A DNA stretch of 64,000 bases from an uncultured virus (IMG/VR IMGVR_UViG_3300044679_000029) (IMGVR_UViG_3300044679_000029:53102-117101), one strand, 5' to 3'. Counted from the stretch's first letter, positions 40,606 through 61,721 are shown. Translations and numbers: made by a program. Notes: generated from the letters alone by a model not told the origin.

Positions 40606-40917
40606 TTGAGGTTTAAATTTTCGATGAGTCTTCCCTTCTGGGAAAAGACTATTGCGTACGTATCACAAAACCCAATTCCAACGTACAACTTTGAAGTTAC
40701 AGGTGATACTGATTACCAGACTATCACCTGTTCAAGTATTATTAGTGGACTGCTATACACATTAAAATCTAATGAGGTGGCGCCGTCTACTTCTGGGTAT
40801 ACAACTACCCCTGTTGTGATGGGTATGGCTTCACTTTTAGGTGAGTGGACCGATAAAGAATTTACAGACAAGTTGGGGGAGTTATTTAACGCTATTGACT
40901 CGGTTATTAGACTATGA
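40606..40917 (+). CDS. Hypothetical protein
   Basis: 103 aa ORF, AAGGA RBS. Confidence 0.55.
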   Translation: MRFKFSMSLPFWEKTIAYVSQNPIPTYNFEVTGDTDYQTITCSSIISGLLYTLKSNEVAPSTSGYTTTPVVMGMASLLGEWTDKEFTDKLGELFNAIDSVIRL

Positions 40918-41141
40918 TGATTGTTTTGTTAGAGGAGTCAGCTTACTCAGCATATGATTTTTGGATCTCGCAAGCTATAGCTCTCAGAGATGACGCTGAT
41001 CTTGGGTTGTACTCAGTGCATTTCAAGGATGAGACAGACGCACATAAGTATTCAGTACTTATTAGAAAAACTCTAAATATACTATACAGTAACACCGGAG
41101 AACTAGATTCCGCAATTCTTGGTGCATGGTTTAATCTATGA
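40914..41141 (+). CDS. MFxxIY-family small protein (divergent)
   Basis: KYSVLIRKTLNILY...WFNL; 3' junction identical to member 58441-58638. Confidence 0.55.
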   Translation: MMIVLLEESAYSAYDFWISQAIALRDDADLGLYSVHFKDETDAHKYSVLIRKTLNILYSNTGELDSAILGAWFNL

Positions 41142-41473
41142 CTAGATTAAGGTCAGCCATATTTACAAAGATTCAAAAGTATTTAAGTAAACCAAGTAAA
41201 AATGAAACGTTCGAAATAAAAGACGGTATTCTGATGCTTAAAAATACTGACTTACCGATACAACATTTGCTCACAGAAATGGGTATTGGTTATACCATCT
41301 ATGATATAGCCGACAGTGAAGGTGTCTTACCAGAAACTATTCAACAAGCTCTAAAAGATCTAGCCACCATATTTGGTGACGATACTACAAAAAATCCAGC
41401 GGAAATAGGTTCTTTTAAGGAACTATTTAAACTATTATATGAAGCTGGATTAGACAGATTAGGACCACGATGA
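41138..41473 (+). CDS. Hypothetical protein, possible HTH
   Basis: GYTIYDIADSEGVLPETIQQAL resembles an HTH. Confidence 0.5.
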   Translation: MTRLRSAIFTKIQKYLSKPSKNETFEIKDGILMLKNTDLPIQHLLTEMGIGYTIYDIADSEGVLPETIQQALKDLATIFGDDTTKNPAEIGSFKELFKLLYEAGLDRLGPR

Positions 41474-41952
41474 AAATAAAAGAAACCTGTAAGCGCTGTG
41501 ACAAAGCCGGACATAATACGAAAGTTAAAATCTCAGTTACTATTAATCCGGCGGATCGTGATACATACTTTAAGTTTTCAAGTCAGTACAAGCTTGATCT
41601 TATAAGTAAGAGAGATGACAGAGCATCGCAGTTATTTATGCCGCCGTCGAAGTATCCGAAGTCGGCACAAGCTCCACTAGTAATTCCTAATAGTTATGAG
41701 AGCCCCTGTGCTCACTGTAAATACGGTGAAGAAACTGTCGGACCTCGTGGGTGCGGTCGGGGTGATAATTGTCTTGCTCTAGCCTGCCATAATTTCCTGA
41801 CGAGTGGCAATATTAAGAACAACTCAGTTGTTACATCGTTTCTAAAAGGAACTCCGAATTGGGATTTGCCAACAAAGAAATACACAAAGAAAGCTATTGG
41901 TACTCCCACTACAGTAGCCGAGTTTGAGAATGCGAAAATCAAAAAAAAGTGA
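41470..41952 (+). CDS. Cys-rich hypothetical protein
   Basis: CKRC..GH, CAHC, C..DNC. Confidence 0.55.
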   Translation: MKIKETCKRCDKAGHNTKVKISVTINPADRDTYFKFSSQYKLDLISKRDDRASQLFMPPSKYPKSAQAPLVIPNSYESPCAHCKYGEETVGPRGCGRGDNCLALACHNFLTSGNIKNNSVVTSFLKGTPNWDLPTKKYTKKAIGTPTTVAEFENAKIKKK

Positions 41953-42187
41953 ACTGGTAACGTGCGCGGTATACTGCGATCGCGGTAATGGTGATTTTGC
42001 TTTATATTCTAACTACGATGTTGAGGTTTCCTGTTATAGCACCATAGTTGCTACTAAAGTAAAATTTAAAGAATTTATTGACAGCGCTAAATACCATGAA
42101 CTACTGTGTGCTAGTTTTAGTCTGATATACAAATATCAGCGCGGTGAGGATGACGGCGCGGTGAATTGCTTTAATCTAGGACGATGA
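41924..42187 (+). CDS. MFxxIY-family small protein (divergent; start uncertain)
   Basis: KYHELLCASFSLIY...CFNL. Confidence 0.55.
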   Translation: MRMRKSKKSELVTCAVYCDRGNGDFALYSNYDVEVSCYSTIVATKVKFKEFIDSAKYHELLCASFSLIYKYQRGEDDGAVNCFNLGR

Positions 42188-42723
42188 TGAACTGTAACTG
42201 TGGTGGGGTTTATAAAATAGGACCCGCTAAACGTTGTACTAAGTGCGGTAAAACAAATAAGCCGGGTGCTATCGCCAAAGAAACAGCATCACTAGAATGT
42301 CAGTCTATGATCAAACAATATGGCATTAAGGGTGACCTGTTTCCAAATATAAAATCACGTATAGAAGCTATAGGCGATGCGTCGACTACAGAAGAAGCTG
42401 AGCGCTTAGGATCACGCGTTGTTAATGCTATGTTTGCGCAATGCCTAGCCGCGTGGGCTGAGGGCAGGGCTGCTGGGCCAGAGACTCCTGAATCGCTTGA
42501 AGTTAAGGCCAAGAAGGCTGAGAGCCTGGCGAAGATGTTACTAAATAAAGATGACGATGCTGGTGCCGAGCGGCAAAAGAAACGCGCTCAAGAATTACGT
42601 GAAAAAGCTAAACAAGGACGGCCTGAAGTAATCATAACTGAATCGCCTAAAGGTCGGCGCTGCGGCAAATGTGGTGGTAACGGCCACAACAGCAGAACAT
42701 GCACAACTCAAACAGGAGATTAA
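42184..42723 (+). CDS. Zinc ribbon + CCHC zinc-knuckle protein
   Basis: N-terminal CNC..CTKC; C-terminal CGKCGGNGHNSRTC (Cx2Cx4Hx4C). Confidence 0.65.
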   Translation: MMNCNCGGVYKIGPAKRCTKCGKTNKPGAIAKETASLECQSMIKQYGIKGDLFPNIKSRIEAIGDASTTEEAERLGSRVVNAMFAQCLAAWAEGRAAGPETPESLEVKAKKAESLAKMLLNKDDDAGAERQKKRAQELREKAKQGRPEVIITESPKGRRCGKCGGNGHNSRTCTTQTGD

Positions 42724-43370
42724 TGTCAACTAAGAAGTTCCGTACAACTATTGTACGAACCGAAGCGGAGAACCTTGAACGAGAAGAACTAATACGTAAG
42801 GCTGCCGATGGCGATGAGATTGCCTTTGAAACTTACTATAAGCAAAATATTAATCTCCTGCGTTCGATCGTAAATCGATGCCATAGACAGTGGCCGAGAG
42901 CTGATGTAGAAAATATCTACCAGGAAGGTCTTATGGGCCTTCTACACGGTATGAAGAAGTACAAATCCGAGAAGCGTAAAACCGGTAGACCCGAATCCTA
43001 CCTATTTAGTTGGGTGCGTGCCTACGCGCGACGGTATTGCGTACAAAACTACCAAGAAGAATCTAATAAAGTTCCGTACGACGAGATTGCTACGAGTGGT
43101 TTCACTACTGCAGAGGACCGAATGGAATACACCGAGCGCTATGGTGATTTTGAAATTCAGGACGCACTTGAGAAATTCTTCAACACACTAAACCCACGTG
43201 ACCAAGTTATCGCTCGCGGGCGATTATGCTATGATACCAAGCGAACACTTAATTCGATTGGTCGAGAATTAGGTGTTTCTCGTGAGCGAATAAGACAGAT
43301 TACTATAGGACTAGTATCTAGGTTCAAGATTTTCGCTGAAAGACATGATGTTGATGTTCATTGGACATAA
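42723..43370 (+). CDS. Sigma70-family factor (regions 2 and 4)
   Basis: LIRKAADGDEIAFE, IYQEGLMGL, SYLFSWVR, RTLNSIGRELGVSRERIRQI; AGGAG RBS. Confidence 0.85.
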   Translation: MSTKKFRTTIVRTEAENLEREELIRKAADGDEIAFETYYKQNINLLRSIVNRCHRQWPRADVENIYQEGLMGLLHGMKKYKSEKRKTGRPESYLFSWVRAYARRYCVQNYQEESNKVPYDEIATSGFTTAEDRMEYTERYGDFEIQDALEKFFNTLNPRDQVIARGRLCYDTKRTLNSIGRELGVSRERIRQITIGLVSRFKIFAERHDVDVHWT

Positions 43371-43372
43371 AT

Positions 43373-43555
43373 ATGTATAATTTTCGTATAACACCATACT
43401 ATACTTTCGATAGATTTTTAATAAGCCCGAACTCTGGTAGAAAAAATCTTACCGAAGGTATGTGGTATAGAGCCATAATCGATATGTTTGATTTAATATA
43501 TCCAGTGGAGTATAGAGAGATTGATGGTCTATTCAATTCTTGGTGGCTAAAGTGA
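43373..43555 (+). CDS. MFxxIY-family small protein
   Basis: WYRAIIDMFDLIY...WWLK. Confidence 0.7.
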   Translation: MYNFRITPYYTFDRFLISPNSGRKNLTEGMWYRAIIDMFDLIYPVEYREIDGLFNSWWLK

Positions 43556-43562
43556 GGTCAAA

Positions 43563-44666
43563 ATGTTACTCGTACAGCAAGCTTTACAGAATGGAACGCA
43601 TACACTCGATTCGCTAAGCCGTGACTTGGGTATTAGTGCAACACGGCATAGTCAACGTAATAATCTTGTGCTACTGAAGTACGACATGACTGAGTCGCCG
43701 ATGGACAACCCACTCGTCCAGGAATGTCGTGGATTGATCTTGGACGAAGATAATAACTGGGCCGTGGTCGCGCATCCGTTCAACAAGTTCTTTAACGTTG
43801 GTGAGCCCAACGCAGCAAAGATTGATTGGAACACAGCTAGGGTTCAAGAGAAGGTTGACGGCTCATTGATCTTTATGTATTGCTATAACTTCAAGTGGGA
43901 GATCTCCTCTTCTGGGATGCCAGATGCTGGCGGAAACATCAACGACTCAGCTACTTCGTTTCGCGAGTTGTTTACTCGAACTTTTCATGAACTGGATATG
44001 AAACTCCCGGATCTCGGTCTTGGGTATTATACCTATATGTTCGAGATGATGTCTCCGTTTAATCGTGTGGTTGTTCAGCAGCCAAAAGCTGATATTGTAT
44101 TTCTTGGTGCGCGAAACAATATCACTGGTCAAGAAATATCTCCAGATGAGTGTGGCTGTAGTGAACGAAACTGGAAGCCGGTTCGTCAGTTTGATCTCAA
44201 GACTGAAGCCGATGTTATAGCTACTCTTGAACCTATGAAGGGCCTTGATCAAGAGGGTTATGTTGTTGTGGACGCGAACTTCAATCGAATCAAAGTGAAG
44301 TGTCCAGACTACCGCCGTCTTCATAGGCTCCGGGGTAACGGTAATTTATCGCCGAAGGGTATTTTGGATCTTGTTCGTCTCGGTAATACGGATGAGATTC
44401 TTGCGTCGTTTCCGGAATTTAGTAAGCCATTTGAACGCGTACAGTCGCGGTATGATGCTCTTGTAGATGAGCTAAATGCTGTTTATGCTGGTATAAGAGA
44501 CTTGAAGATTCAGAAAGACTTTGCCCTTGAAGCGGTAAAGCACCGGTGCAGTGGCGCACTATTTCAGTTGCGTGCCGGGCGCGTCACAAACGTAAAGCAG
44601 TTTTTGTCAACGATGGTGTTGGATAACCTAGCAGACACTCTTGAGTTAAAGAGTTTGGAGTTCTAG
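43563..44666 (+). CDS. RNA ligase, T4 Rnl1-like
   Basis: ECRGLILD, FNKFFN, EKVDGS, MFE, EGYVV, KVK. Confidence 0.88.
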   Translation: MLLVQQALQNGTHTLDSLSRDLGISATRHSQRNNLVLLKYDMTESPMDNPLVQECRGLILDEDNNWAVVAHPFNKFFNVGEPNAAKIDWNTARVQEKVDGSLIFMYCYNFKWEISSSGMPDAGGNINDSATSFRELFTRTFHELDMKLPDLGLGYYTYMFEMMSPFNRVVVQQPKADIVFLGARNNITGQEISPDECGCSERNWKPVRQFDLKTEADVIATLEPMKGLDQEGYVVVDANFNRIKVKCPDYRRLHRLRGNGNLSPKGILDLVRLGNTDEILASFPEFSKPFERVQSRYDALVDELNAVYAGIRDLKIQKDFALEAVKHRCSGALFQLRAGRVTNVKQFLSTMVLDNLADTLELKSLEF

Positions 44667-46123
44667 TGGCTCAGGTAGCAAAAACACAAAAAGTCAAAGG
44701 CCTACTTGCATTAAAGAATTCGACCGTGTGGAGTGACGAAGTTCCGCATTTTCGTGTTATCACAAACGACCTGGAACTAACGAACTTCCTTAAGTGCGGG
44801 AAGGGCTTGCGCGATGTAGATTACCCCATATTCGCGCGACCCTGTCCTATCACTCCGCGGCATGGATTTGTTGATTCAACAGTTGTAAACAGTAATAAGG
44901 AACTTAAGGCACTTTGGGTAGCTGCACGTAAAGTTGACCCGCAGGCTGAAATGATTCTTATGAAGCCGGTTGATTGCGTTGCATCGGCTATTCTTACTGA
45001 AAATAAAATCAGTGTTGGTCCAAGTAACGACGGTGCGACGTCAGGTAAGAATACGGTTAATTTGCCGCTATCTAGTCTTACTGTGGTTAGCGAGTATATC
45101 TCAGATTTAGCTGGGGTCAAAGACACAGCATATATCGAAGCGCTATTTCCCAGCGACCATGATGGTCAATTCGCCGTACAGTTGCGGGATGGACCTGCGT
45201 GTAAGACAAATGGTAACCAAATACCCAAGACGACTAAGGTGAAGAAGATCGTAACTACCAGTAGCTGTCATGATCTTCTTGCTTGGGAATCACTGATGGC
45301 GAAGGCTAAAGCCGGTACTGTTGTATACCACAAAGGCGGAAGTCCCCTATCACACTATTCCGTTCATGCCATCTTGAATGATATACCGGTGATTTTCGAC
45401 AAGCCGCCAAAGATTGGTAGCGTATTGAAGGCGAGCAAGAATGCCAATAAGCAATCATTTCCGGTAGAAACTTGTAAAGGCATACATGACGGATTCTCAA
45501 CACAGCTGTGTGTTAAGGATTGTGGTAAAGTCCTTACATTTGCTGTGATGAGTGCACATCATGCTCTTGCTATGATGAACGACCAGGAAGGTAGTTATCT
45601 TGTTGGCGTTGGCGCAGCGCTAATGGTTAGATTAGCTTATACCGCGTGCCTCGGCGAGAATCGGTATTTTACGCATAGGGGTAGTAGAGATGGAATTTAC
45701 AAGAAGGTCTTAACCAAGTACGCCGACAACCGAAAGAGGATGGTACAAGCATATAAGAACTTTAATCTTGATGATGATGATGACTATTTCGATGTTGGTG
45801 GTGCCCCTTGGCGATTATGCGCAAAGACGGCAATACAGTTAGAAAATAGTCTAATAGCATACAGCAAAAAGCCGAATAGAAAAACACTTGAAAAGACTGT
45901 GGCAATCATGCATAATCTTATCAATTGTACCCATAATAATGGATATCTATTCGATAAGTTTGACGGGTACGGTTATCGTTGTGCGAATACGTTTGATCAA
46001 CATGCAGACGGTGATCCTAACGCCGTATTAGATAGTGCTAAGAATTACTATGAGTGGAAACAGTCGTTTCATGTTAGCAAGCATGTTAACCCCAGGAAGA
46101 TGAAACCGGTGATGGCAATATGA
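44666..46123 (+). CDS. PEP-utilising-enzyme mobile (phosphohistidine) domain protein
   Basis: GGSPLSHYSVHAILNDIPVI swivel motif; N-terminal FARPCP..PRHGFVDS..VQLRDGP. Confidence 0.6.
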   Translation: MAQVAKTQKVKGLLALKNSTVWSDEVPHFRVITNDLELTNFLKCGKGLRDVDYPIFARPCPITPRHGFVDSTVVNSNKELKALWVAARKVDPQAEMILMKPVDCVASAILTENKISVGPSNDGATSGKNTVNLPLSSLTVVSEYISDLAGVKDTAYIEALFPSDHDGQFAVQLRDGPACKTNGNQIPKTTKVKKIVTTSSCHDLLAWESLMAKAKAGTVVYHKGGSPLSHYSVHAILNDIPVIFDKPPKIGSVLKASKNANKQSFPVETCKGIHDGFSTQLCVKDCGKVLTFAVMSAHHALAMMNDQEGSYLVGVGAALMVRLAYTACLGENRYFTHRGSRDGIYKKVLTKYADNRKRMVQAYKNFNLDDDDDYFDVGGAPWRLCAKTAIQLENSLIAYSKKPNRKTLEKTVAIMHNLINCTHNNGYLFDKFDGYGYRCANTFDQHADGDPNAVLDSAKNYYEWKQSFHVSKHVNPRKMKPVMAI

Positions 46124-46887
46124 TTAATAAGTTTGAAAATACTGTAAAGAAGATAGAGGAGAGATTATCGACACCGACGTCTACCACAACTAAGCCCGCT
46201 ATAACCTGGAGTCAGATGGACCACGAAGGTGGTGTCACCGAAACTTCGACTGGTGATCGTATCGTATCGGAGAAGTTCGATAAGTCTAGTAAGGTTGAAG
46301 TGATTGAGGAGGATTGGCCTACCGAGGTAAAGAGTTCGACACCTGCGCGCGATAACGGCGGCTGGAATAGTAGTAAAGTCTACAGCGGTTTTAGTTTTGC
46401 AAAAGACTGCCATAAGGTATATAGCCCGGATAAGCACTCTCCACTATTTACTATAAGTAAATCCAAGATATATCCTGGTAGGTTGTCTGAGCTATCGGAC
46501 AGCGGTTCGTGGAATCTCGTGATTGATTGTGCTAATGGCCAATATCGTAGTGGTGGGTATTACGCCCCCATGGAGTATCAGGATCTGGAAAAGTATGTTA
46601 TTCCTGTCATTACGCTTCCGTGGGAAGACATGTCACCTCCGCCTGTGCAGCCAGAATTCTGGATCAATCTCGTTAAGAGACTGCCGCCAGGTAACATTGG
46701 CGTTGGTTGCGTTGGTGGTCATGGTCGTACTGGTACCGCTATTGCGGCTATGTTAATATGTAGTACAAGTAAAAATGCTACTCAGGCTATCCGTTGGGTG
46801 CGTAGGGAATACTGCGAAAGCGCCATCGAAAATGATGCGCAGGAGAAGTATCTATTTGTACTTGAAAAGAAGCTAGGACGTAAGTAA
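46120..46887 (+). CDS. Protein-tyrosine / dual-specificity phosphatase
   Basis: CVGGHGRTG (Cx5R), LPWEDMSPP, AIRWVR, AIENDAQ. Confidence 0.85.
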   Translation: MINKFENTVKKIEERLSTPTSTTTKPAITWSQMDHEGGVTETSTGDRIVSEKFDKSSKVEVIEEDWPTEVKSSTPARDNGGWNSSKVYSGFSFAKDCHKVYSPDKHSPLFTISKSKIYPGRLSELSDSGSWNLVIDCANGQYRSGGYYAPMEYQDLEKYVIPVITLPWEDMSPPPVQPEFWINLVKRLPPGNIGVGCVGGHGRTGTAIAAMLICSTSKNATQAIRWVRREYCESAIENDAQEKYLFVLEKKLGRK

Positions 46888-46934
46888 TAAACCTGTACAA
46901 GGATGTTATCATCCGACGTACAATTTTGAGACAA

Positions 46935-47171
46935 ATGCTTACTGGCTATAAAGATACGTTCTGTGTTACTGTCGATGACAGGGCACCTAGTTGTGCTATT
47001 ACTACTAGGATTAACAAACAAGAAATAACGCATAAAAGCGTGGTGGGATTCAACACAAAGGAATCCAGTTTTAAATATATAGATCTTTGCATCGAAATGT
47101 TTGAGACTATATATTATGGGCGATACAGTAAACTAGACTACGAACATCTAAACAGATTTGAGATAAAATGA
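46935..47171 (+). CDS. MFxxIY-family small protein
   Basis: KYIDLCIEMFETIY...FEIK. Confidence 0.7.
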   Translation: MLTGYKDTFCVTVDDRAPSCAITTRINKQEITHKSVVGFNTKESSFKYIDLCIEMFETIYYGRYSKLDYEHLNRFEIK

Positions 47172-47656
47172 TACGACAAATTATTATCTGGCCTGATAAG
47201 CGTTTAACGCAACTCGCTGAGCCAGTTACAGAATTTAATGATGAACTAAAGCAACTTGCTGATGACCTGGTTGAGACCATGGTGGCCTATGATGGTAAGG
47301 GTTTGGCGGCGACTCAGGTCGGCGTCATGAAGAGCGTGATTGTGGTTAGTATGGACAACAAGCCCACAGTTTTTGTTAATCCCGCGTATTCTTCCGAAAA
47401 GGGTGAAAAACAAACACTACAAGAGGGTTGCCTTTCAGTTCCTAATGTTTTTGAACGCATTGAACGGCTGTCTGACGTCCGCGTTATCGCGCAAGATGTA
47501 CTAGGTAACGACATGCCGCCGATGTATCTAAAGGGATACGACGCTGTCGCCGTGCAGCACGAGTGTGATCATCTTGAGGGCAAGATGTTTACCGATTATA
47601 TTAGCTCGCTGAAGAGAAGTCTTATTAAATCAAAGATGAAGAAATACAAGAGGTAA
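47168..47656 (+). CDS. def: Peptide deformylase
   Basis: GKGLAATQVG, EGCLS, QHECDHL. Confidence 0.93.
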   Translation: MIRQIIIWPDKRLTQLAEPVTEFNDELKQLADDLVETMVAYDGKGLAATQVGVMKSVIVVSMDNKPTVFVNPAYSSEKGEKQTLQEGCLSVPNVFERIERLSDVRVIAQDVLGNDMPPMYLKGYDAVAVQHECDHLEGKMFTDYISSLKRSLIKSKMKKYKR

Positions 47657-47657
47657 T

Positions 47658-48235: not shown

Positions 48236-48457
48236 ATGAAAGTAGCCAGGTTTTGGGTATTCTGGCAGCAAACTTCTATGCAACCTCACGGCTATAAAAT
48301 ATGGTACTATAACCATGACAATACTCAGGTTAGTCATTATTATAGCAACAACGAGGGCATAACATTAGCCTATGTTTTTGCGGTTAACAAGATGTTCGAT
48401 AGTTTATACTACAGAAAAACAACCGAGACGTACACGACCGCAGATTGGGTTCTATGA
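48236..48457 (+). CDS. MFxxIY-family small protein
   Basis: AYVFAVNKMFDSLYYR...WVL. Confidence 0.7.
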   Translation: MKVARFWVFWQQTSMQPHGYKIWYYNHDNTQVSHYYSNNEGITLAYVFAVNKMFDSLYYRKTTETYTTADWVL

Positions 48458-48681
48458 ACGGTTTTGCGTTATTATGGAATAAGGAGAAGGGAAACTACAG
48501 TGTGCGCTTTAGTAATAATGTTAATACTAAGACTAACCCAGCGAATTGGGCTATTCTATTTAGTCGACACGATAATCCAATCAGACGGTACATGTATATG
48601 AGCGCTCTCACCGACATGTTCGATATAGTTTATGCCCGCATCAATAATGACTATGATCGTCGGATATGGATACTAAGATGA
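48454..48681 (+). CDS. MFxxIY-family small protein
   Basis: MYMSALTDMFDIVYAR...WILR. Confidence 0.72.
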   Translation: MNGFALLWNKEKGNYSVRFSNNVNTKTNPANWAILFSRHDNPIRRYMYMSALTDMFDIVYARINNDYDRRIWILR

Positions 48682-48908
48682 AAGGTTTCGCTCTGTGTCT
48701 AACACAAGAGTACTTTGAACACAGATATTACGGGCTTCGCGTACTGACTCGTGACACAAAAATGAATATAGATAAAGCCCCTATTTCATCAGTACCACAT
48801 AATCTCGGCCCTCCGAATATTAAAGAGTACATTGAAGCGTGTAATATAGTGTTTGATAGAATTTACGCACGTGTAGAATTACCACCCGTTAGACGGTGGT
48901 TAGTTTAA
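48678..48908 (+). CDS. MFxxIY-family small protein
   Basis: EYIEACNIVFDRIYAR...WLV. Confidence 0.72.
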   Translation: MKGFALCLTQEYFEHRYYGLRVLTRDTKMNIDKAPISSVPHNLGPPNIKEYIEACNIVFDRIYARVELPPVRRWLV

Positions 48909-48916
48909 GGAATAAG

Positions 48917-50020
48917 ATGGAATTTCAGACACTATATAAGAAAACTTCAACTAATGCGACACAAAGCTGGACTGTATCCACAGCAGATAATATTATTACT
49001 ACTCGTTGGGGACAAGTAGACGGTAAAATCCAGGAGACCTCGGAAACAATCAAAGAGGGCAAGAATCTTGGAAAGAAAAACGCAACAACTGCGATTCAGC
49101 AGGCCGAGTTTCAAGCCAAGTCGCTTTGGGAAAAGAAGCTTAAGTCTGGATACGTAAAGAGTATCGAAGATGCTAAAGCTGGTAAGGTCGACAAAATTAT
49201 TAAGGGCGGCGTATCACCGATGCTTGCGCAGAAGTTTTCTGAGCGTGGCCAAAAGATTATCTACCCTGCGGCAGCGCAACCTAAACTCGACGGACACCGC
49301 TGTATTGCTATCCTTAAGAACGGTAAATGCACTCTTTGGAGTCGTAAACGTCAAGCGATTACGGGTTTACCACATATAAATAAGGAGATCGAGGATAATT
49401 TTACCGGCGGTGTAATACTCGACGGTGAATGTTATAACCACGCTTACAAACATAACTTCGAAGTTCTTAGTAGTTTTATTCGATCAAAGACACCGAAGCC
49501 TGGCTGTGAGGTTGTGCAATATCATGTGTACGATACTATAAATAATCTACCGTACAACGAACGACTGCAACTAATAAAGACTTTTCCGTTTGTTAATAAG
49601 TACCTCAAGCGTGTTAAGACTCGTTTAGTTAACGATGAAGACGAACTCATGCTCGCGTTTGAAGAGTTTCTTTTGGATGGGTATGAAGGTGCTATGGCCA
49701 GAAACTTGGCTAGCGTATATGAAGTTGGTAAGCGCTCTAATGATCTCCAGAAGATAAAAAAGTTCGATGATACAGAAGTCCTGATCACTGGTGTGAAAGA
49801 AGGTCACGGAAAACTTGCCGGTCATGCTATATTTCTTTGTGAAACATACAAAAAGGTTCCGTTCGAAGCAAAGATGCGCGGTGAGATTAGTAAATTGAAA
49901 GAGTATTTTGACCACCCAGAAACTGTAATTGGTGAGAAACTTACTATTAAGCATCAGGGCTGGACGAAGGATAATAAACCCAGATTCGTCGTAGCTTGGC
50001 GACTACGTGAGGATATATGA
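48917..50020 (+). CDS. ATP-dependent DNA ligase with WGR-like N-terminus
   Basis: PMLA, QPKLDGHR, LDGE, YHVYD, EGAM, KRS..LQKIK. Confidence 0.9.
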   Translation: MEFQTLYKKTSTNATQSWTVSTADNIITTRWGQVDGKIQETSETIKEGKNLGKKNATTAIQQAEFQAKSLWEKKLKSGYVKSIEDAKAGKVDKIIKGGVSPMLAQKFSERGQKIIYPAAAQPKLDGHRCIAILKNGKCTLWSRKRQAITGLPHINKEIEDNFTGGVILDGECYNHAYKHNFEVLSSFIRSKTPKPGCEVVQYHVYDTINNLPYNERLQLIKTFPFVNKYLKRVKTRLVNDEDELMLAFEEFLLDGYEGAMARNLASVYEVGKRSNDLQKIKKFDDTEVLITGVKEGHGKLAGHAIFLCETYKKVPFEAKMRGEISKLKEYFDHPETVIGEKLTIKHQGWTKDNKPRFVVAWRLREDI

Positions 50021-50118
50021 TATTTGGACCAGAAGATAATGACGACATGGAAGATTACGATGATGAAAATGAAGAAGACCCGGATGACATCTGGACCGAT
50101 GATCTTGTGGAAGACTAA
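50017..50118 (+). CDS. 33-aa hyperacidic peptide
   Basis: MIFGPEDNDDMEDYDDENEEDPDDIWTDDLVED; GAGGA RBS; overlaps both neighbours (ATGA, TAATG). Confidence 0.6.
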   Translation: MIFGPEDNDDMEDYDDENEEDPDDIWTDDLVED

Positions 50119-50348
50119 TGACGTTCGGGGATATTAATTTCTCGTTCGTGACCACTAGATTTCCTTATTTCTGGATAGAACATCTGCCAGAATATTTTTC
50201 GACGTCTAGTTATGTCGACAACTTTATCGAGGAACATCCTTCAGGTTACGCAGCGGCGGTTATTGATATGTTTGATCGTGTTTACACTCGCCATGAACTC
50301 CGGCTGTCTGAGAGTATCTCTGTTCCGGTTTGCTGGTGTTTTAAATAG
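50118..50348 (+). CDS. MFxxIY-family small protein
   Basis: GYAAAVIDMFDRVYTR...WCFK. Confidence 0.72.
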   Translation: MTFGDINFSFVTTRFPYFWIEHLPEYFSTSSYVDNFIEEHPSGYAAAVIDMFDRVYTRHELRLSESISVPVCWCFK

Positions 50349-50699: not shown

Positions 50700-50700
50700 T

Positions 50701-52551: not shown

Positions 52552-52782
52552 ATGAAAGCCTTTTGGGTCGATGTGCGCCCGACGAATAGGGATATGCGTT
52601 ATTGGTTTACTGCTGACTTGAGTCTTGCTGCATCAGGAGTAGTATATATGACGGAAATAATCCCGCGTACTTTACAAGACAAATATTATAAACTATGTTG
52701 CGGGATGTTTAATAGAATATACGCACCGTTGTCTGATAAGTATCAGGTTAAAAATAGTTTGCGCGGATGGATACTACTATGA
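52552..52782 (+). CDS. MFxxIY-family small protein
   Basis: KYYKLCCGMFNRIYA...WILL. Confidence 0.72.
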   Translation: MKAFWVDVRPTNRDMRYWFTADLSLAASGVVYMTEIIPRTLQDKYYKLCCGMFNRIYAPLSDKYQVKNSLRGWILL

Positions 52783-53203: not shown

Positions 53204-53215
53204 TATAGACTAGAG

Positions 53216-53276
53216 AGAATGTCCTAGCCGGGACATTTTCTTTAGCTTACATAATACCACAAAATGTGGTATAAGA
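53216..53276 (+). promoter_or_regulatory. Terminator hairpin + TTTAGCT + early promoter motif (copy 3)
   Basis: AGAATGTCC-loop-GGACATTTT, then TTTAGCT, then AAAATGTGGTATAAGA. Confidence 0.7.
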
Positions 53277-54081: not shown

Positions 54082-54270
54082 ATGAAAATCGGACGAAACG
54101 ACCCGTGTCACTGCGGAAGTGGCGTGAAGTACAAGAAGTGTCACTGGTGGAAGGAGAGCCAGAAGAATGTCCCGGATCGTGGGGCGGAGAAGCGTACCGC
54201 AAACAGGACCGGAAGTTCGATTCGCAACATGTTGGCTCTGATTCCGTTCATCGGAATTGGTAGTCGCTAA
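54082..54270 (+). CDS. SEC-C motif protein
   Basis: [20 protein letters not shown]; AAGGAG RBS. Confidence 0.85.
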
Positions 54271-56365: not shown

Positions 56366-56400
56366 CCAAGAGCCCCAGATTCTTTGGGGCCTTGTTTTCT
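56366..56400 (+). terminator. Intrinsic terminator
   Basis: GCCCCAGA-TTC-TTTGGGGC followed by CTTGTTTT. Confidence 0.6.
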
Positions 56401-56412
56401 AGACTGGAATAA

Positions 56413-56652
56413 ATGAGATTTAAATTAATGTCTTTTACTGATAAAAGTTGTGGATGGTGCGTGTCTATTTTTATAGATAGCAATACTAATACTGACGAAT
56501 ACTACATAACGCCGTTCAGCCGGAGAAGTTTGTTACCAGAGAAATATTTTGAACTGTGCTCAAGTATGTTTAATACCGTGTACAAGATACATCTGATAAA
56601 TGAAGATGAGTTCGGCGACAAGTTACCGCCCAACAGCTGGGAACTATACTAA
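56413..56652 (+). CDS. MFxxIY-family small protein
   Basis: KYFELCSSMFNTVYK...WELY. Confidence 0.72.
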   Translation: MRFKLMSFTDKSCGWCVSIFIDSNTNTDEYYITPFSRRSLLPEKYFELCSSMFNTVYKIHLINEDEFGDKLPPNSWELY

Positions 56653-56817
56653 ATGCGCAGACAATATTACTGGTGGGATCAAATGGGTCCGGACAGTAGG
56701 ATGCGGTTCTATCCATATGCTTCCCGTAACTTAATTTACCTGGAATTGATGACGTGTATGCTTGACCATATTTACCAACGCGACGTTGGCGGTAGTGGTG
56801 TTTTTATATTGGAGTAA
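56653..56817 (+). CDS. MFxxIY-family small protein (54 aa, not in track)
   Basis: MRRQYYWWDQ...IYLELMTCMLDHIYQR...FILE. Confidence 0.68.
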   Translation: MRRQYYWWDQMGPDSRMRFYPYASRNLIYLELMTCMLDHIYQRDVGGSGVFILE

Positions 56818-56818
56818 A

Positions 56819-56977
56819 ATGAAAACAAGTTTTGTTATTAAATCTAGACAGAGATTTTCAATCTCGTATGACGATACAGGCAGCTGTGCAGACTGGATGA
56901 AATATCATAATGAATTAGTATTTCCGATGCTCAGTTTAATTTACCGGTTTGATAGTTTACTATGGATATTACTATGA
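56819..56977 (+). CDS. MFxxIY-family small protein
   Basis: KYHNELVFPMLSLIYR...WILL. Confidence 0.65.
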   Translation: MKTSFVIKSRQRFSISYDDTGSCADWMKYHNELVFPMLSLIYRFDSLLWILL

Positions 56978-57198
56978 ACTTTACTATACGAAACTACAAA
57001 AAGTACATGGATAGGTGGTTTTGGGATTACTTGACGTTTGCTGAGCGAAGAGATCTTGATTTTAAACTTCCGTTTACGGATGCCGCCGAATGTAGTAGTT
57101 ACTTCAGTCTTTGTGTCGACATGTTTGACACCGTTTATAAGCGAGCGGGGACTGAATTTCTGACGATGGATGGCGTATCTTTATGGGAATTAAAATGA
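56974..57198 (+). CDS. MFxxIY-family small protein
   Basis: SYFSLCVDMFDTVYKR...WELK. Confidence 0.72.
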   Translation: MNFTIRNYKKYMDRWFWDYLTFAERRDLDFKLPFTDAAECSSYFSLCVDMFDTVYKRAGTEFLTMDGVSLWELK

Positions 57199-57434
57199 AA
57201 GTTCTAATTTTGTTGCTCCTAACTTCTTGTGGCAGTGCTTTTGAGTATGGTCCGGACGACGGCGGAAATATTTGTAATGGATCAGTGATACCGGACGGCG
57301 CCGTGTGTTGTAGTCCTGGCGAGATGTTGTCGGGTGATTACTGCCCAGAGAATTATGTCTGCTGCTCGATTGGGTGTGTGCAGTCTACTGAAGTTGATGT
57401 TGTAAATAGCACAGGAATTGAGAGTTGTGACTAA
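57195..57434 (+). CDS. Cys-rich lipoprotein
   Basis: MKVLILLLLTS-C lipobox; acidic, CC/C-rich body. Confidence 0.65.
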   Translation: MKVLILLLLTSCGSAFEYGPDDGGNICNGSVIPDGAVCCSPGEMLSGDYCPENYVCCSIGCVQSTEVDVVNSTGIESCD

Positions 57435-57646
57435 TGGCTAACTATATGTATATCACGAACCCGGAACGTTGTCGCTGGGCTCCTGTCGCGAAATTTATTG
57501 TGGGTACAGATCCTATTTACGGTGTCATATTTTATCCTAGGACACGCGTCGACGCAAGCGAGTACGCAAAACTGTGTGTAGACATGTTTGATTTGGTGTA
57601 CGCAAGAGTGCACAATAACCCGTCGTATAAATTCATGTTAATATGA
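57434..57646 (+). CDS. MFxxIY-family small protein
   Basis: EYAKLCVDMFDLVYAR...FMLI. Confidence 0.72.
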   Translation: MANYMYITNPERCRWAPVAKFIVGTDPIYGVIFYPRTRVDASEYAKLCVDMFDLVYARVHNNPSYKFMLI

Positions 57647-57852
57647 AAACAACCATACAAATAAATAAACTAGACGCGCATACGGTTATATTTTACGGCT
57701 ACGTCATTAATGACATCGGGCAGATTCTTTGTGAATACACTTTGAACCCGCATAGCCGCGAATATAAATACTATCATGCTTGCGCTGACATGTTCTCCTT
57801 ACTATACAATAGATACCTAAATCTTGATGATAGAAAGTTTGTGTTAAAATGA
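57643..57852 (+). CDS. MFxxIY-family small protein
   Basis: KYYHACADMFSLLYNR...FVLK. Confidence 0.72.
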   Translation: MKTTIQINKLDAHTVIFYGYVINDIGQILCEYTLNPHSREYKYYHACADMFSLLYNRYLNLDDRKFVLK

Positions 57853-58036
57853 AAACTATATTAACATCCTGGAACACGGGTGGCTCTACAGTATTTTTCT
57901 ACATGTATCTTGATAACCACGCGTGGGGGCAGACTACGATGAATACGTCGACTACTTTAAAGCCTGTTTAAAAATGTTTAGACGCATTTATAGAAATTTA
58001 GATAATGACAAATCTGCGGCGTTCGTACTGGAATAA
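57849..58036 (+). pseudogene. MFxxIY-family member frameshifted near a G5 run
   Basis: Frame 0 MKTILTSW...FYMYLDNHAWG stops at 57971; the -1 frame gives DYFKACLKMFRRIYR...FVLE. Confidence 0.7.
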
Positions 58037-58037
58037 A

Positions 58038-58244
58038 ATGAAAACAACTCTAAAAATATATACGTGTACCGATTACGGGGTAGCGAAACGTGGGTTCTAT
58101 ATGTATCTAGACACCTTATCGAGGGATTTTTGGATGCCGTCGACACCGGAGTTTAAAGACTATCATGATGCTTGTCAGCGTATGTTTCATAGGATCTACA
58201 GAAGTGCCGAAGATAATTCTGATAGACTATTCGTACTGGAATAA
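58038..58244 (+). CDS. MFxxIY-family small protein
   Basis: DYHDACQRMFHRIYR...FVLE. Confidence 0.72.
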   Translation: MKTTLKIYTCTDYGVAKRGFYMYLDTLSRDFWMPSTPEFKDYHDACQRMFHRIYRSAEDNSDRLFVLE

Positions 58245-58246
58245 AA

Positions 58247-58438
58247 ATGAATAAACGTAAACTAATTCAGTTAGACACATGGCGCGGCAAAGACGGGCTC
58301 ATTCACTTCTACCCAGAGACGACCGGAAATGGCGATGTCGAGTTAGTAAGAAGCTATCAACTAGCGTGTATTTATACATTCGAGCATATCTATGCCTATT
58401 TCAGTAACCGAAATGATCTCGGATTTGTTCTGTACTAA
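58247..58438 (+). CDS. MFxxIY-family small protein
   Basis: SYQLACIYTFEHIYA...FVLY. Confidence 0.7.
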   Translation: MNKRKLIQLDTWRGKDGLIHFYPETTGNGDVELVRSYQLACIYTFEHIYAYFSNRNDLGFVLY

Positions 58439-58440
58439 TT

Positions 58441-58638
58441 ATGAAATTTGAACTTTATTGTGATTTCAAAAAAAAACCATTAGAATTTTTTCCGTCCATA
58501 ATTAAAAATAGAACTAATTGGGCATATATTAACACCCGTGATTATGAGCCTGAATACAAATACCTAAAGGCCGCTAATGAAATGTTTGACTTAATATATA
58601 CGCGCCGGACGACGAAGACAGTATGGTTTAATCTATGA
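58441..58638 (+). CDS. MFxxIY-family small protein
   Basis: KYLKAANEMFDLIYTR...WFNL. Confidence 0.72.
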   Translation: MKFELYCDFKKKPLEFFPSIIKNRTNWAYINTRDYEPEYKYLKAANEMFDLIYTRRTTKTVWFNL

Positions 58639-58844
58639 CAACAACAATAAAAATATGGCCAGAAAAACCTTACAGTTCGTTTAGGCCATTCTATGTGGAC
58701 GATGCCGGTAACCTTATAGGCTACTACACTCTTAAGGCGTCACTGCCAAAAGAATATAAGTACATAGATGCCTGCCGGGTGATGTTTGAAAGAATATATG
58801 TGTATAAAGATAACAACTATAATGGCTTATTTGACTTGGTGTAA
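58635..58844 (+). CDS. MFxxIY-family small protein
   Basis: KYIDACRVMFERIYV...FDLV. Confidence 0.72.
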   Translation: MTTTIKIWPEKPYSSFRPFYVDDAGNLIGYYTLKASLPKEYKYIDACRVMFERIYVYKDNNYNGLFDLV

Positions 58845-58846
58845 TC

Positions 58847-59011
58847 ATGAAACGAGTTTGTGAAAATTGTGGTAAGGCCGCTGTGTTTACAGCCAAAGGC
58901 GGCAAGGCACATACAGACGACACACATACACTCTGCCAGAAATGTTGGCGCGACTTGCTAAATATTAACAGGAGTCTTGAAATGAAAAGCGGCGAGGTCA
59001 CAAGGCGATGA
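58847..59011 (+). CDS. 54-aa zinc-finger protein (not in track)
   Basis: MKRVCENCGK...LCQKCWRDLL. Confidence 0.6.
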   Translation: MKRVCENCGKAAVFTAKGGKAHTDDTHTLCQKCWRDLLNINRSLEMKSGEVTRR

Positions 59012-59196
59012 AGATAAAGATTACCGAATTATACGTATGGCCATCCTCACAGATTACTGGTGGGGTGTATTTTACGTATACCGCTGTGTCTACGGCTAGT
59101 CGAACGTACGAAAAAGCCTGTATCGATATGTTTGATTTGGTGTACAACCGTACTGATGACGCGTTCGAGTTTGTTACATCTTGGAGTATACGATGA
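59008..59196 (+). CDS. MFxxIY-family small protein
   Basis: TYEKACIDMFDLVYNR...WSIR. Confidence 0.72.
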   Translation: MKIKITELYVWPSSQITGGVYFTYTAVSTASRTYEKACIDMFDLVYNRTDDAFEFVTSWSIR

Positions 59197-59402
59197 CAGA
59201 AAACTATATAGCTATGAAATACTATAATGACGAGGTAAATTTCTACAGCGACGGAGGATTTTATTGGAATATAAGAATTCTATTTCAAACTGGATATAAT
59301 CACGGAGAAAAATATTTTAAAATCGCAGAAGAAATGTTCGACCGTGTTTATGCGAGAATACCATCTGAGCGAGAGCAGTATGCCTGTTGGAGTAAAGTGT
59401 GA
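59193..59402 (+). CDS. MFxxIY-family small protein
   Basis: KYFKIAEEMFDRVYAR...WSKV. Confidence 0.72.
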   Translation: MTENYIAMKYYNDEVNFYSDGGFYWNIRILFQTGYNHGEKYFKIAEEMFDRVYARIPSEREQYACWSKV

Positions 59403-59611
59403 ACAAATATTATAACTTCTTTCAGATTGCATGTTATGCTAATTATTCGGTGCACTGCTATAATAGTGGAAAAAATATGGGTAGCCTTGTAAATTTCAAA
59501 ATCAAACAGGAACGGACGATGTACTACCTTATGTGTGAAGCAATGTTTAATACCGTGTATGACGTGACAGAAACTTATAGTGGAAAATTTAGTCGATGGT
59601 GCCTGGAATGA
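59399..59611 (+). CDS. MFxxIY-family small protein
   Basis: MYYLMCEAMFNTVYD...WCLE. Confidence 0.72.
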   Translation: MNKYYNFFQIACYANYSVHCYNSGKNMGSLVNFKIKQERTMYYLMCEAMFNTVYDVTETYSGKFSRWCLE

Positions 59612-59895
59612 AAACCAAAATTCCTATAAAGAAATTCACAGAGGACGTCACGAAGTCGTGGGAAGAGAACTACAGGAGACTTGTAGAACACCGTGAAGAA
59701 GAGACGGCGTTCTTAATTAAGACAATTGAAGAACTCGAAACGCGTATGGAAAACTGTAGAAGCTGTTCCTCTCTTCTAGCAGCGGACGAGTGTGCACGAT
59801 CTGGGCATACTCCCTGTACTCATCCATTTGGGTGTGACTGCGGGTATATGCCAAAGGGTTCGGTTGTATGTTCTCGGTGCGATGAGGTTATATAA
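59608..59895 (+). CDS. Coiled-coil + Cys-rich hypothetical protein
   Basis: ATGA-coupled; several Cys clusters. Confidence 0.55.
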   Translation: MKTKIPIKKFTEDVTKSWEENYRRLVEHREEETAFLIKTIEELETRMENCRSCSSLLAADECARSGHTPCTHPFGCDCGYMPKGSVVCSRCDEVI

Positions 59896-60125
59896 TGAAC
59901 CAAAAACCTAATACGTGGTTTTCGTGTGGAACACGGGCGACACCACATATAGTTAAATTATGTAGCAACACGAGTACTAACACCCCACGCTGGAACACGT
60001 TTGTTACATTCGAGGAAGTAGGGGACGCAAAAAAATATCAGGATATAGTAATTGATATGTTTAGTCTAATATACATAAGAAATTTTGGTTATAGCCGAGA
60101 CGACTACGCAAACTGGGATAGATAA
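59895..60125 (+). CDS. MFxxIY-family small protein
   Basis: KYQDIVIDMFSLIYIR...WDR. Confidence 0.72.
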   Translation: MNQKPNTWFSCGTRATPHIVKLCSNTSTNTPRWNTFVTFEEVGDAKKYQDIVIDMFSLIYIRNFGYSRDDYANWDR

Positions 60126-60126
60126 T

Positions 60127-60456
60127 ATGAAGAAACCAATAAAAGGATATGTTCACGAACCGGTGTACTCATACACTGATGTTATACACTATCTTGAAAA
60201 GAAGTATAAGTTTAATAGTCGGGATTTTGCTAACAAGCACGGTGGTGACTCCGAGAGTGATCGGCCATATCAGGATTTTTGGCACTGGGTAGTTGGTAAT
60301 GACGACGAAATTCGTAATGGTAGTTATACAGGTATCTGCGTCGATTACTTCCTAGAAAATTCGGATACGCCTGATTGGGTCAAAACTATTCTTGGATATT
60401 TCAAAAAAGAGTTTCCGGAAGATAGCGAGTACATGGAGATGTGGGTCGAATGGTGA
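60127..60456 (+). CDS. Hypothetical phage protein
   Basis: YLEKKY..RDFA..PYQDFWHW..IRNGSY..WVEW. Confidence 0.6.
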   Translation: MKKPIKGYVHEPVYSYTDVIHYLEKKYKFNSRDFANKHGGDSESDRPYQDFWHWVVGNDDEIRNGSYTGICVDYFLENSDTPDWVKTILGYFKKEFPEDSEYMEMWVEW

Positions 60457-60668
60457 CTATTGATAACAAGCCATGGTTTGCTTTAGATAATTACTTATGT
60501 GTGGTTGGGTACGCTACCCACATAGACAGTCATTGGCCAACTAATATAAATTTTAAACACAAAAAAAGCGCGTTTGTGTATTACACCGCCATTTGCGACA
60601 TGTTTAATAAGCTGTACTCATTTCGCGGCGCGCGCACTGGTAGCAACGTTATAAATTGGTATATATGA
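60450..60668 (+). CDS. MFxxIY-family small protein
   Basis: VYYTAICDMFNKLYS...WYI. Confidence 0.72.
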   Translation: MVTIDNKPWFALDNYLCVVGYATHIDSHWPTNINFKHKKSAFVYYTAICDMFNKLYSFRGARTGSNVINWYI

Positions 60669-60871
60669 TTAAACATGGGATGTTTGCTATAAATTACGAA
60701 GGGCGTGACGTCATGTACTACAACAGTATAGACGATGATCGGTCAGCCTACACAAATTTTAAAACCGACAAACAAAGTGAAAAATACTATAGACTTGTAG
60801 TAAATATGCTTGATCGCGTGTATATAAGATGTATTGTACTAGAGCATAGTACTTATTGGGAATTTAAATGA
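60665..60871 (+). CDS. MFxxIY-family small protein
   Basis: KYYRLVVNMLDRVYIR...WEFK. Confidence 0.72.
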   Translation: MIKHGMFAINYEGRDVMYYNSIDDDRSAYTNFKTDKQSEKYYRLVVNMLDRVYIRCIVLEHSTYWEFK

Positions 60872-61056
60872 AAAATGTGTTTATTCGGTTTGTAATTACG
60901 TTATCCATATTGACGCTGATACCGGTTGGTGTGACAGCTATTCTGTTTGGTGTGTCATACTTAATATCTCTTATTGGTGTAGACGCGTCGATATGTCTGT
61001 TGGTTAGCGTCGGTGTGTCTCTATGGATGGCCATAGACAAGAAGTCTTTTAAATAA
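60868..61056 (+). CDS. Small two-TM membrane protein
   Basis: Two hydrophobic segments. Confidence 0.6.
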   Translation: MKNVFIRFVITLSILTLIPVGVTAILFGVSYLISLIGVDASICLLVSVGVSLWMAIDKKSFK

Positions 61057-61064
61057 GGAGTAAC

Positions 61065-61289
61065 ATGCATCAGTTTTGGAAAAATTATTTGGATGCTCTA
61101 AGCGACTTTACCGTAAGAATTGCGGTCGTTGTCGTTTTTGTTTTAATGACAGCAGTCTGCGTTGTGCCGACTGTATATGCAATTTTCCTCTTTGCGCACG
61201 GGCATTCTGTTTATGGTGCCTTAAGCAGCGTAGGAGCATTTATGTGTTTTGCCGCTGTTGGTGCGGTATGGGAAACCTGGATTAAATAA
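61065..61289 (+). CDS. Small two-TM membrane protein
   Basis: AAGGAG RBS; two hydrophobic segments. Confidence 0.65.
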   Translation: MHQFWKNYLDALSDFTVRIAVVVVFVLMTAVCVVPTVYAIFLFAHGHSVYGALSSVGAFMCFAAVGAVWETWIK

Positions 61290-61290
61290 C

Positions 61291-61506
61291 GTGATATGGG
61301 ATATATGGATAGAAGACTGGGGCGCAGGCCAGAAGAAATTAGGGTTTGGCACCTCAGATGCTCTGAACGATAAAAAATTAGTAATGAATGACTGCGACGT
61401 AAGAGATTATTGGCAAGCCGCTTGTGATATGTTTAGTTTAATCTACCGTATGTCCGTTATGTCAAAGGCGGGTTATGTCAAGTCTTTTCGGAGATTTGAG
61501 TCATGA
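61291..61506 (+). CDS. MFxxIY-family small protein
   Basis: GTG start; DYWQAACDMFSLIYR; N-terminal DIWI shared with the next gene. Confidence 0.7.
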   Translation: MIWDIWIEDWGAGQKKLGFGTSDALNDKKLVMNDCDVRDYWQAACDMFSLIYRMSVMSKAGYVKSFRRFES

Positions 61507-61721
61507 TAATGGATATTTGGATTGATTCTAACAGCGGTAAAAAACAAATATTTTGCGGTAGCGATTACATTCTGCGAAATAGTTTGTATAGCGTATCAGG
61601 CGAAATAGACATGCACCTCTATATAGTCGCATGTGCAAAAATGTTTAATCGAGTTTATCCCAAAATGGACACGACTAAATTTTACAATATTGTGCCGCTG
61701 CATCGATTTTTCATAGCATAA
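61503..61721 (+). CDS. MFxxIY-family small protein
   Basis: LYIVACAKMFNRVYP...RFFIA. Confidence 0.72.
   Translation: MIMDIWIDSNSGKKQIFCGSDYILRNSLYSVSGEIDMHLYIVACAKMFNRVYPKMDTTKFYNIVPLHRFFIA

Follow-up and report, generated by a model that had tools for sequence, protein, structure and literature searches.

The right-hand part of a virus genome record from the IMG/VR collection (IMGVR_UViG_3300044679_000029) carries a large family of small paralogous genes whose products combine a constant C-terminal module with a strongly diversified N-terminal half. The record is a linear sequence of 117,101 bases, estimated by CheckV to be 65% complete, and the stretch analyzed here (hereafter, the window) comprises 64,000 nucleotides (nt) at its right end, bases 53102-117101. 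It represents the genome of an uncultivated large phage, whose lineage bears the habitat labels peat and freshwater. Between window positions 40914 and 61721, the plus strand holds 28 open reading frames (ORFs) of 52-87 codons, all lying where a first-pass annotation of the window had placed them. Their products share the motif Y-x2-[AL]-[C/I/V]-x2-M-F-x2-[I/V/L]-Y, often followed by R, and then 8-20 variable residues and an aromatic-x-hydrophobic ending. The earlier list of ORFs stands with two amendments: one entry (57849-58036) is a frame-broken copy, and several TTG or GTG starts fit better at an ATG overlapping or adjoining the preceding stop codon.

Nine members are dispersed among enzyme genes, singly or in threes, and often overlap the starts or stops of these genes (the scores given here and below are leave-one-out profile scores). 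The two leftmost lie at 40914..41141 (75 residues; 18.5 bits against a best shuffle of 6.1; strain variant P0024) and at 41924..42187 (85-87 residues; 24.9 bits; identical to P0003 over 85 residues). The start of the member at 43361..43555 (64 residues; 20.3 bits) overlaps the end of a sigma-70-like gene, and the stop of the one at 46926..47171 (78-81 residues; 30.4 bits; strain variant P0001) overlaps the start of a peptide deformylase gene. Three follow one another at 48236..48457 (73 residues; 18.4 bits), 48454..48681 (75 residues, with its start shifted to the ATG of an ATGA; 31.0 bits; identical to P0010 over 75 residues) and 48678..48908 (76 residues; 19.1 bits; strain variant P0012), the last overlapping the start of a DNA ligase gene. 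Two further 76-residue members are found at 50118..50348 (25.0 bits) and 52552..52782 (30.2 bits; strain variant P0007).

The remaining 19 members form, together with six other small genes, a dense block of 25 genes in 5,309 nt (56413-61721), flanked on both sides by terminator-like hairpins. The hairpin just 5' of the block (56372..56390, plus strand) has an 8-pair stem followed by a T run, while the one that closes it (61729..61744) is two-way, with a 6-pair GC-rich stem and T runs on both strands. The block opens with a 79-residue member at 56413..56652 (24.4 bits), which carries in-frame deletions of 6 and 15 nt in one of the strains compared below (X4), followed by the two divergent members. 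One of these occupies 56653..56817 (54 residues; 9.3 bits, best shuffle 7.8); the other, listed as an ORF from a TTG start at 56762, is better read as 56819..56977 (52 residues; 6.0 bits, best shuffle 8.4) and keeps M-L-x2-I-Y and a W-I-L ending. A member at 56974..57198 (74 residues; 34.0 bits; strain variant P0014) precedes the first non-family gene, which encodes a 79-residue Cys-rich protein with a lipoprotein-like signal peptide and no Pfam family (57195-57434). Members then follow at 57434..57646 (70 residues; 31.6 bits), 57643..57852 (69 residues; 30.6 bits), 57849..58036 (the frame-broken copy), 58038..58244 (68 residues; 25.2 bits; strain variants P0004 and P0006), 58247..58438 (63 residues; 15.2 bits), 58441..58638 (65 residues; 35.1 bits) and 58635..58844 (69 residues; 27.8 bits). 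Two zinc-ribbon-like proteins with CxxC pairs are encoded at 58847-59011, with only weak, sub-threshold matches to Pfam zinc ribbons, and at 59608-59895, without even a weak match of this kind. Between them lie members at 59008..59196 (62 residues; 31.5 bits), 59193..59402 (69 residues; 24.2 bits; strain variant P0015) and 59399..59611 (70 residues; 30.4 bits). The block ends with members at 59895..60125 (76 residues; 33.2 bits), 60453..60668 (71-75 residues; 23.4 bits), 60665..60871 (68 residues; 30.0 bits), 61291..61506 (71-85 residues; 18.1 bits; identical to P0018 over 71 residues) and 61503..61721 (72 residues; 23.5 bits). A 109-residue protein and two membrane proteins make up the rest of the six non-family genes.

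We assessed the reality of the family by scoring each member against a profile built from the other 27, alongside 200 shuffles of each, and by scanning the 2,442 six-frame segments of the record. Twenty-six of the 28 members scored 15-35 bits (E <= 0.005) and above all 200 of their own shuffles; of the divergent pair, 56653-56817 was marginal and 56762-56977 failed. The first-pass count of 26 clear and 2 divergent members was thus reproduced. The scan of the whole record added three tandem members on which the profile had not been trained (E 1.3e-4, 6.4e-5 and 0.016; 24497-25151 in record coordinates, 28.6 to 27.9 kb ahead of the window), bringing the family to at least 31 members in the record, and returned nothing better than E 0.16 on the minus strand. 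Motif searches of the window were similarly one-sided. The strict form, Y..[AL][CIVAT]..MF..[IVL]Y, occurs in 16 ORFs on the plus strand and none on the minus strand, and a looser form in 25 and 1, respectively; the core MF..[IVL]Y is present in 23 ORFs of the window, namely 21 members, an unrelated plus-strand ORF at 23058 and a minus-strand ORF at 60581.

The possibility that these are not genes, but a repeat at the DNA level or ORFs arising by chance in AT-rich DNA, is refuted by these scores and by the strand bias of the strict motif, along with two further observations. Codons at the conserved positions are mixed (among the 28 members, TAT 13 and TAC 13 at the first Tyr, TTT 19 and TTC 5 at the Phe, TAC 16 and TAT 12 at the last Tyr). 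Since both codons are used at each of these residues, what is under selection is the protein rather than a repeat in the DNA, as the first reading of the synonymous variation had proposed. In addition, an open N-terminal frame reaches a start that abuts the previous gene in 27 of the 28 members, far beyond chance length in this DNA, where only 4-10% of random 45-codon windows are free of stops. The family consists of real coding genes, selected at the protein level.

The arrangement of these genes suggests close coupling of their translation. Among the 24 junctions of the dense block, the 4-nt ATGA-type overlap occurs 13 times, an overlap of 1 nt twice, a spacing of 0 to 2 nt eight times and one of 8 nt once. 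Such overlaps imply that many of the true starts are ATG codons at the previous stop, and gene calls on other contigs concur. A Shine-Dalgarno-like word is present at most block junctions, and the terminal Trp codon TGG, with the codon after it, often makes up a GGA or GGAG located 7-12 nt ahead of the following start. The terminal motif has therefore probably been shaped both by the protein and by the ribosome-binding site of the next gene; it is not merely a DNA signal, since members that end in F-V-L-K or F-M-L-I provide no Shine-Dalgarno-like word. Judged by gene spacing, these are clearly compact polycistrons with predicted translational coupling.

A likely promoter for the family units is the 9-mer TGGTATAAG, of which the record holds 13 exact copies, all on the plus strand and mostly preceded by an A-rich 'aaaat[cg]' lead-in. 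Six copies lie in the window (1034, 36633, 40374, 44489, 53267 and 61772) and seven more upstream in the record; the exact copy nearest upstream of the dense array is at 53267..53275, on the plus strand. Two copies directly follow terminator-like hairpins, and in front of the upstream cluster of three members another stands 8 nt from the start codon, which would make that mRNA nearly leaderless. A scan for sigma-70 promoters performed no better than on shuffled sequences (44 sites vs. 40.0 +/- 7.3).

What the members have in common is confined to their last ~30 residues. This module, an amphipathic helix followed by a terminal aromatic-hydrophobic strand, is constant in each protein. Its conserved positions follow the spacing i, i+3, i+4, i+7, i+8, i+11 and i+12 expected of one face of an amphipathic helix; nearly all carry hydrophobic or aromatic residues, and the intervening positions are variable. 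Because the conserved residues form the hydrophobic face, a fold core or a self-association surface is likelier than an exposed docking site, and the residue pattern suggests that the helix belongs to the structural core. The earlier description of a constant C-terminal module joined to a diversified N-terminal half is thus borne out, but the designation of that module as a 'docking helix' is doubtful, as its conserved positions look like a buried face. The N-terminal 27-55 residues, also as described before, are mostly unalignable: in a profile test of these parts alone, 1 of 30 members beat all 200 shuffles and 4 of 30 ranked in the top 5%, which ruled out a common beta-strand pattern detectable by profile.

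Members at 57643, 58038 and 58635 can be aligned pairwise from end to end at about 35% identity, the most that any two paralogs reach, and the family evidently arose through old duplications. Aromatic content is very high (17.6% F+W+Y), isoelectric points range from 4.5 to 10.0 (above 8.5 in 10 of 28), and no member contains a hydrophobic segment of membrane-span grade; by composition, the proteins are clearly predicted to be soluble and varied in surface. In AlphaFold2 models of two members, the motif forms a confidently predicted helix (predicted local distance difference test, pLDDT, 81-89 over this block); elsewhere the two differ. The model of 59008..59196 (whole-model pLDDT 68) combines the helix with two short C-terminal strands, and that of 57643..57852 (pLDDT 64) with an N-terminal beta hairpin. 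Prediction of a two-copy complex of the latter scored 0.02, which speaks neither for nor against binding. Fold searches with its low-confidence model (pLDDT 64) gave no match at E <= 0.001 in the Protein Data Bank (PDB) and BFVD by Foldseek, and a best Z of 3.7 in a wide VIA-align search, in which rows for PH-domain and OB-fold proteins (Z 2.3-2.9) were noise; at this model confidence, the lack of a match carries little weight. A feature search of the ESM Atlas likewise returned no usable match, the Atlas model of a member having a pLDDT of 0.41.

Database searches uphold the initial statement that the family is unrecognised. For the 28 members, the best Pfam match had an E-value of 0.058, with no Pfam family matched by more than one member; the best PHROGs match reached 0.0016, with the same family matched by at most 2 of 28; NCBIfam matched none, and the family profile found nothing among PDB sequences at E <= 1. 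Run with HMMER against 1.84 billion representative proteins, the same profile gave 24 matches at E <= 0.001, all of 52-85 residues and none fused or longer: 11 of the window's own proteins, 11 variants of them at 87-99% identity, and 2 new paralogs (P0021 and P0025), whose sole known sources are contigs of 913 and 1,232 bases. Two word-based searches of 5.8 billion proteins agreed with this outcome, the second, with an enlarged alignment, adding nothing. The 90% cluster of one 52-residue variant (P0019) also holds a 324-residue 'oligopeptide-transport ATP-binding protein' (P0029), which looks like a clustering oddity.

Searches at the DNA level pointed the same way. One member used as query against viral contigs recovered no loci, and the loci around relatives of the DNA ligase (L006-L020, identity 45% at best) contained no member. 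Two candidates were rejected: metagenome locus L021 was a false positive, a high-GC bacterial contig matched in the wrong frame, and the segment L007 11800-11979, with an E-value of 0.17, falls for the most part within a longer ORF. The literature on phage paralog families, supplements excluded and the motif itself not searched as text, yielded no paper on this family. As far as these collections reach, the family is clearly confined to one uncultivated phage lineage.

Parts of the array are present in 24 listed public runs from 20 studies of peat, freshwater, lake and permafrost metagenomes, of which we compared four with the window: the DNA runs X2, X3 and X4 and the metatranscriptome library X14. 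In the three DNA runs, the region is covered by long pieces that differ little from the window and keep its gene order, and the indels that separate strains within members preserve the reading frame (6, 15, 3 and 9 nt). Summed over the pieces listed (32 of 141), X2 differs from the window at 26 of 3,562 bases in the array (0.73%) and at 25 of 9,561 outside it (0.26%), and X4 at 49 of 1,542 (3.2%) and 53 of 4,054 (1.3%). Across 13 orthologous protein pairs, residue differences number 40 of 538 in the N-terminal part, 3 of 169 in the helix and 11 of 208 in the tail, so that N-terminal halves are about four times more changeable between strains than the helix (Fisher p = 0.005). We classed 34 of 319 differing sites, from 40 listed. 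Among these, the 15 in family genes comprise 13 residue-changing and 2 silent differences, with none of the 13 in the helix, and other genes show 12 residue-changing and 9 silent. The N-terminal half still gathers mostly residue-changing differences between strains.

The frame-broken member, 57849-58036, is a copy of its neighbor 58038-58244 that is split into two frames near a run of five Gs: its N-terminal part extends to 57971, and its C-terminal part, with the motif (26.2 bits), is read in another frame from 57917. The X2 version has a 1-nt loss and a 1-nt gain elsewhere in the gene and is again out of frame with the start. Two different lesions fit a dying copy, although the contigs are of low depth and assembly error is possible. 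X3 has almost no cover over 59164-60491, X2 has a weakly supported joint (side 24) that skips 60277-61495, and several strain contigs end near member borders; as no well-supported contig bridges these places, we do not claim gain or loss of copies. Contigs of both X2 and X3 also depart from the window at 54088 and 54135, with seemingly different DNA between. X14 contigs match, at >=99%, pieces that hold the members at 46926, 48454/48678, 58247/58441, 59895 and 60665. One X14 contig has an extra A in an A run at 58467, within the member at 58441-58638, which the DNA runs do not have and which may be a variant, an error or slippage.

The genes around the family are non-structural phage genes on the plus strand. 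Domain matches identify a sigma-70-like factor (42699-43370), a T4-Rnl1-type RNA ligase (43563-44666), a dual-specificity-phosphatase-like protein (46120-46887), a peptide deformylase (47168-47656), an ATP-dependent DNA ligase (48896-50020) and a TPM-domain protein (51526-52482), all on the plus strand. Apart from one glycosyl hydrolase 46 domain, no PHROG or Pfam family was assigned to the large minus-strand genes at 17578-36590. Ten large phage proteins found no match in PHROGs, a 920-residue protein no relative among viral contigs and a 1,163-residue protein none in phage records, which together indicate a phage without a close described relative. Elsewhere in the window, a ribonucleotide reductase gene (11680-14613) is split by a LAGLIDADG domain, probably as an intein; a dynein-related AAA_5 ATPase and a protein that combines DUF2201 metallopeptidase-like with VWA-like domains are encoded close to each other (2280-3524 and 5466-6947); and a lone tRNA-Ile gene has the anticodon TAT (37278-37350).

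Given these patterns, we favor reading the at least 31 small aromatic-rich proteins as a lineage-restricted multigene family that supplies a repertoire of host-directed accessory proteins built on one small scaffold, a view that we consider about equally likely to be right or wrong. In this view, a small alpha+beta scaffold would have the helix as its hydrophobic keel, with the variable, beta-rich front half as the working or specificity surface. Each paralog may have its own target, with a role in host takeover or counter-defence, and the family would be expressed from phage-specific promoters of the TGGTATAAG type. The proposed role draws on the early-type accessory gene setting, on the evolutionary pattern and on analogy with the paralogs of the anti-CRISPR protein AcrID1 (PMC11065993). 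In a stronger form, which we regard as possible but distinctly less probable, the family would be a repertoire of more than 30 binders with an invariant helix, whose beta-rich half has diversified, and is still diversifying, against many host defence and housekeeping proteins.

Several results weigh against a host-directed role. No known anti-defence or host-takeover family was matched in Pfam, PHROGs or NCBIfam. The excess of non-synonymous differences is not significant, whether judged against expectation (13 of 15 vs. 80% expected, p = 0.41, omega-like ratio 1.6) or against other genes (p = 0.077), and comes from the 34 classed sites out of 319; with few sites and no significance, relaxed constraint fits as well as an arms race. 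Whole-model confidence is low for both predicted structures, so that the scaffold idea draws mainly on the residue pattern. The X14 contigs, the sole sign of transcription, are a hint at most, because that library may contain DNA.

Other functions would also account for a constant module. The proteins could be adaptors or cargo that share one partner, the module being a signal or docking element for a single phage component and the variable half the payload, as in the layout put forward by the first-pass annotation; the module would then act much as the capsid-targeting sequence of the T4 internal proteins does. We judge this unlikely. Candidates for the common partner would be, for example, a route of head packaging or injection, the RNA polymerase of the phage or a sigma factor. 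In favor are the constancy of the module in some thirty otherwise unrelated-looking proteins, a fourfold better conservation of the helix than of the remainder between strains, and the overlap of one member with the sigma-factor gene. What is conserved, however, is a hydrophobic helix face with variable polar positions in between, resembling a buried core, and the comparable signal of phage T4 is N-terminal and cut off, whereas this module is C-terminal. Somewhat less probable still are small regulators of nucleic acids, transcription or translation acting on the phage's own machinery (RNA polymerase, sigma factors or ribosomal protein). Members are interleaved with the genes for the sigma-70-like factor, RNA ligase and peptide deformylase, and many are basic, but the spread of isoelectric points argues against one common nucleic-acid ligand, no DNA- or RNA-binding family was matched in Pfam or NCBIfam, and thirty regulators for one machinery would be unprecedented. 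A library of modified-peptide precursors (ribosomally synthesized and post-translationally modified peptides, RiPPs), with a C-terminal 'follower' recognized by one modifying enzyme and an aromatic-rich, hypervariable N-terminal core, would likewise have many precursors with one constant recognition part, and the aromatic content suits it. We consider it very improbable: the variable part, at 30-55 residues and with a beta hairpin in its model, does not resemble a core peptide, Radical_SAM (PF04055), the only enzyme family searched record-wide, has no match in the 117-kb record (~65% complete), and the scan of annotated neighbors showed no other modifying enzyme.

The members might, alternatively, be largely dispensable products of tandem duplication that take up room in the genome and are only loosely kept open, with no separate specific functions, an explanation to which we give the same low probability as to adaptors or cargo. 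It accords with an omega-like ratio not different from neutral and with the one copy that is frame-broken, at another place in X2, and the arrays of more than 30 genes in the jumbo phages G and 121Q have been read as tandem duplication enlarging the genome (PMC5646251). Yet 27 of 28 copies are intact despite their age, orthologs lie in order in three further runs with indels in frame, the helix is clearly under purifying selection, and tight translational coupling has been kept. At present, this is a well-documented orphan family. If, as in the reading we favor, the targets of its members differ, one uncultivated phage would supply some thirty naturally occurring versions of a scaffold of 60-80 residues. 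These would allow the diversification of small phage inhibitors to be studied in compact form and would be a source of new anti-defence or host-takeover proteins.

Comparable combinations of constant and variable parts, and comparable multiplication of genes, occur in several virus groups. The internal proteins of phage T4 share an N-terminal capsid-targeting sequence of ~10 residues that is removed by the head (prohead) protease. They resemble the present family in joining a constant short module to unrelated variable bodies, and at least one is a counter-defence protein, but the module here is C-terminal, ~30 residues long and hydrophobic, and the N-termini of our members are alike only at the start. 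Large eukaryotic DNA viruses carry multigene families such as MGF110, MGF360 and MGF505 of African swine fever virus (ASFV) and the host-range families of poxviruses. These too are lineage-specific, host-directed paralogs in variable genome regions that are subject to copy gain, loss and decay, although they belong to eukaryotic viruses, their proteins are much larger, and roles in host interaction have been proven for some. Should the repertoire of more than 30 binders prove correct, it would be a bacterial-virus counterpart of these poxvirus and ASFV families and a natural minimal binder scaffold.

Among viruses of prokaryotes, 26 of 35 AcrID1 homologs are paralogs clustered in four rudiviruses, with identities as low as 7.3%; one member is reported as a proven anti-CRISPR, and the authors suggest functional diversification (PMC11065993). 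The likeness lies in a small-protein family multiplied within single virus genomes, encoded close together and of very low identity (PMC11065993). In contrast, the rudiviruses are archaeal viruses with a handful of copies per genome, as against ~30 here, and have a promoter for each early gene instead of translational coupling (PMC11065993). The comparison with AcrID1 is one of description; as indirect negatives, PHROGs, which covers archaeal viruses, gave no match, and the HMMER search returned the present lineage alone.

The closest parallel in organization is with the jumbo phages G and 121Q, whose genomes have tandem runs of over 30 similar genes (Hua et al., 2017; PMC5646251). As there, a large phage carries tens of small, head-to-tail paralogs without assigned function, produced by tandem duplication: our record has 31 members, 19 of them in the 25-gene, 5.3-kb array. 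The label 'undescribed system' in the first-pass annotation was therefore overstated. The protein family is new, but its kind, a large tandem array of small paralogs in a big phage, is already published (PMC5646251), and archaeal viruses are already known to have paralogous anti-defence families (PMC11065993). The two cases show no detectable sequence relation, all 24 HMMER matches being from the present lineage in a library assumed to include the G and 121Q proteins. Moreover, the G and 121Q copies are called 'very similar' (PMC5646251), while identity here is at most about 35%, and a third of the copies are scattered singly between enzyme genes. What distinguishes the present family is its deep divergence, the clean split between a constant helix and a non-alignable half, and its partial dispersal among enzyme genes. 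It is a very diverged addition to the unexplained paralog arrays of large phages, and its example suggests that selection maintains such arrays, which would then be more than genome filler of recent origin.

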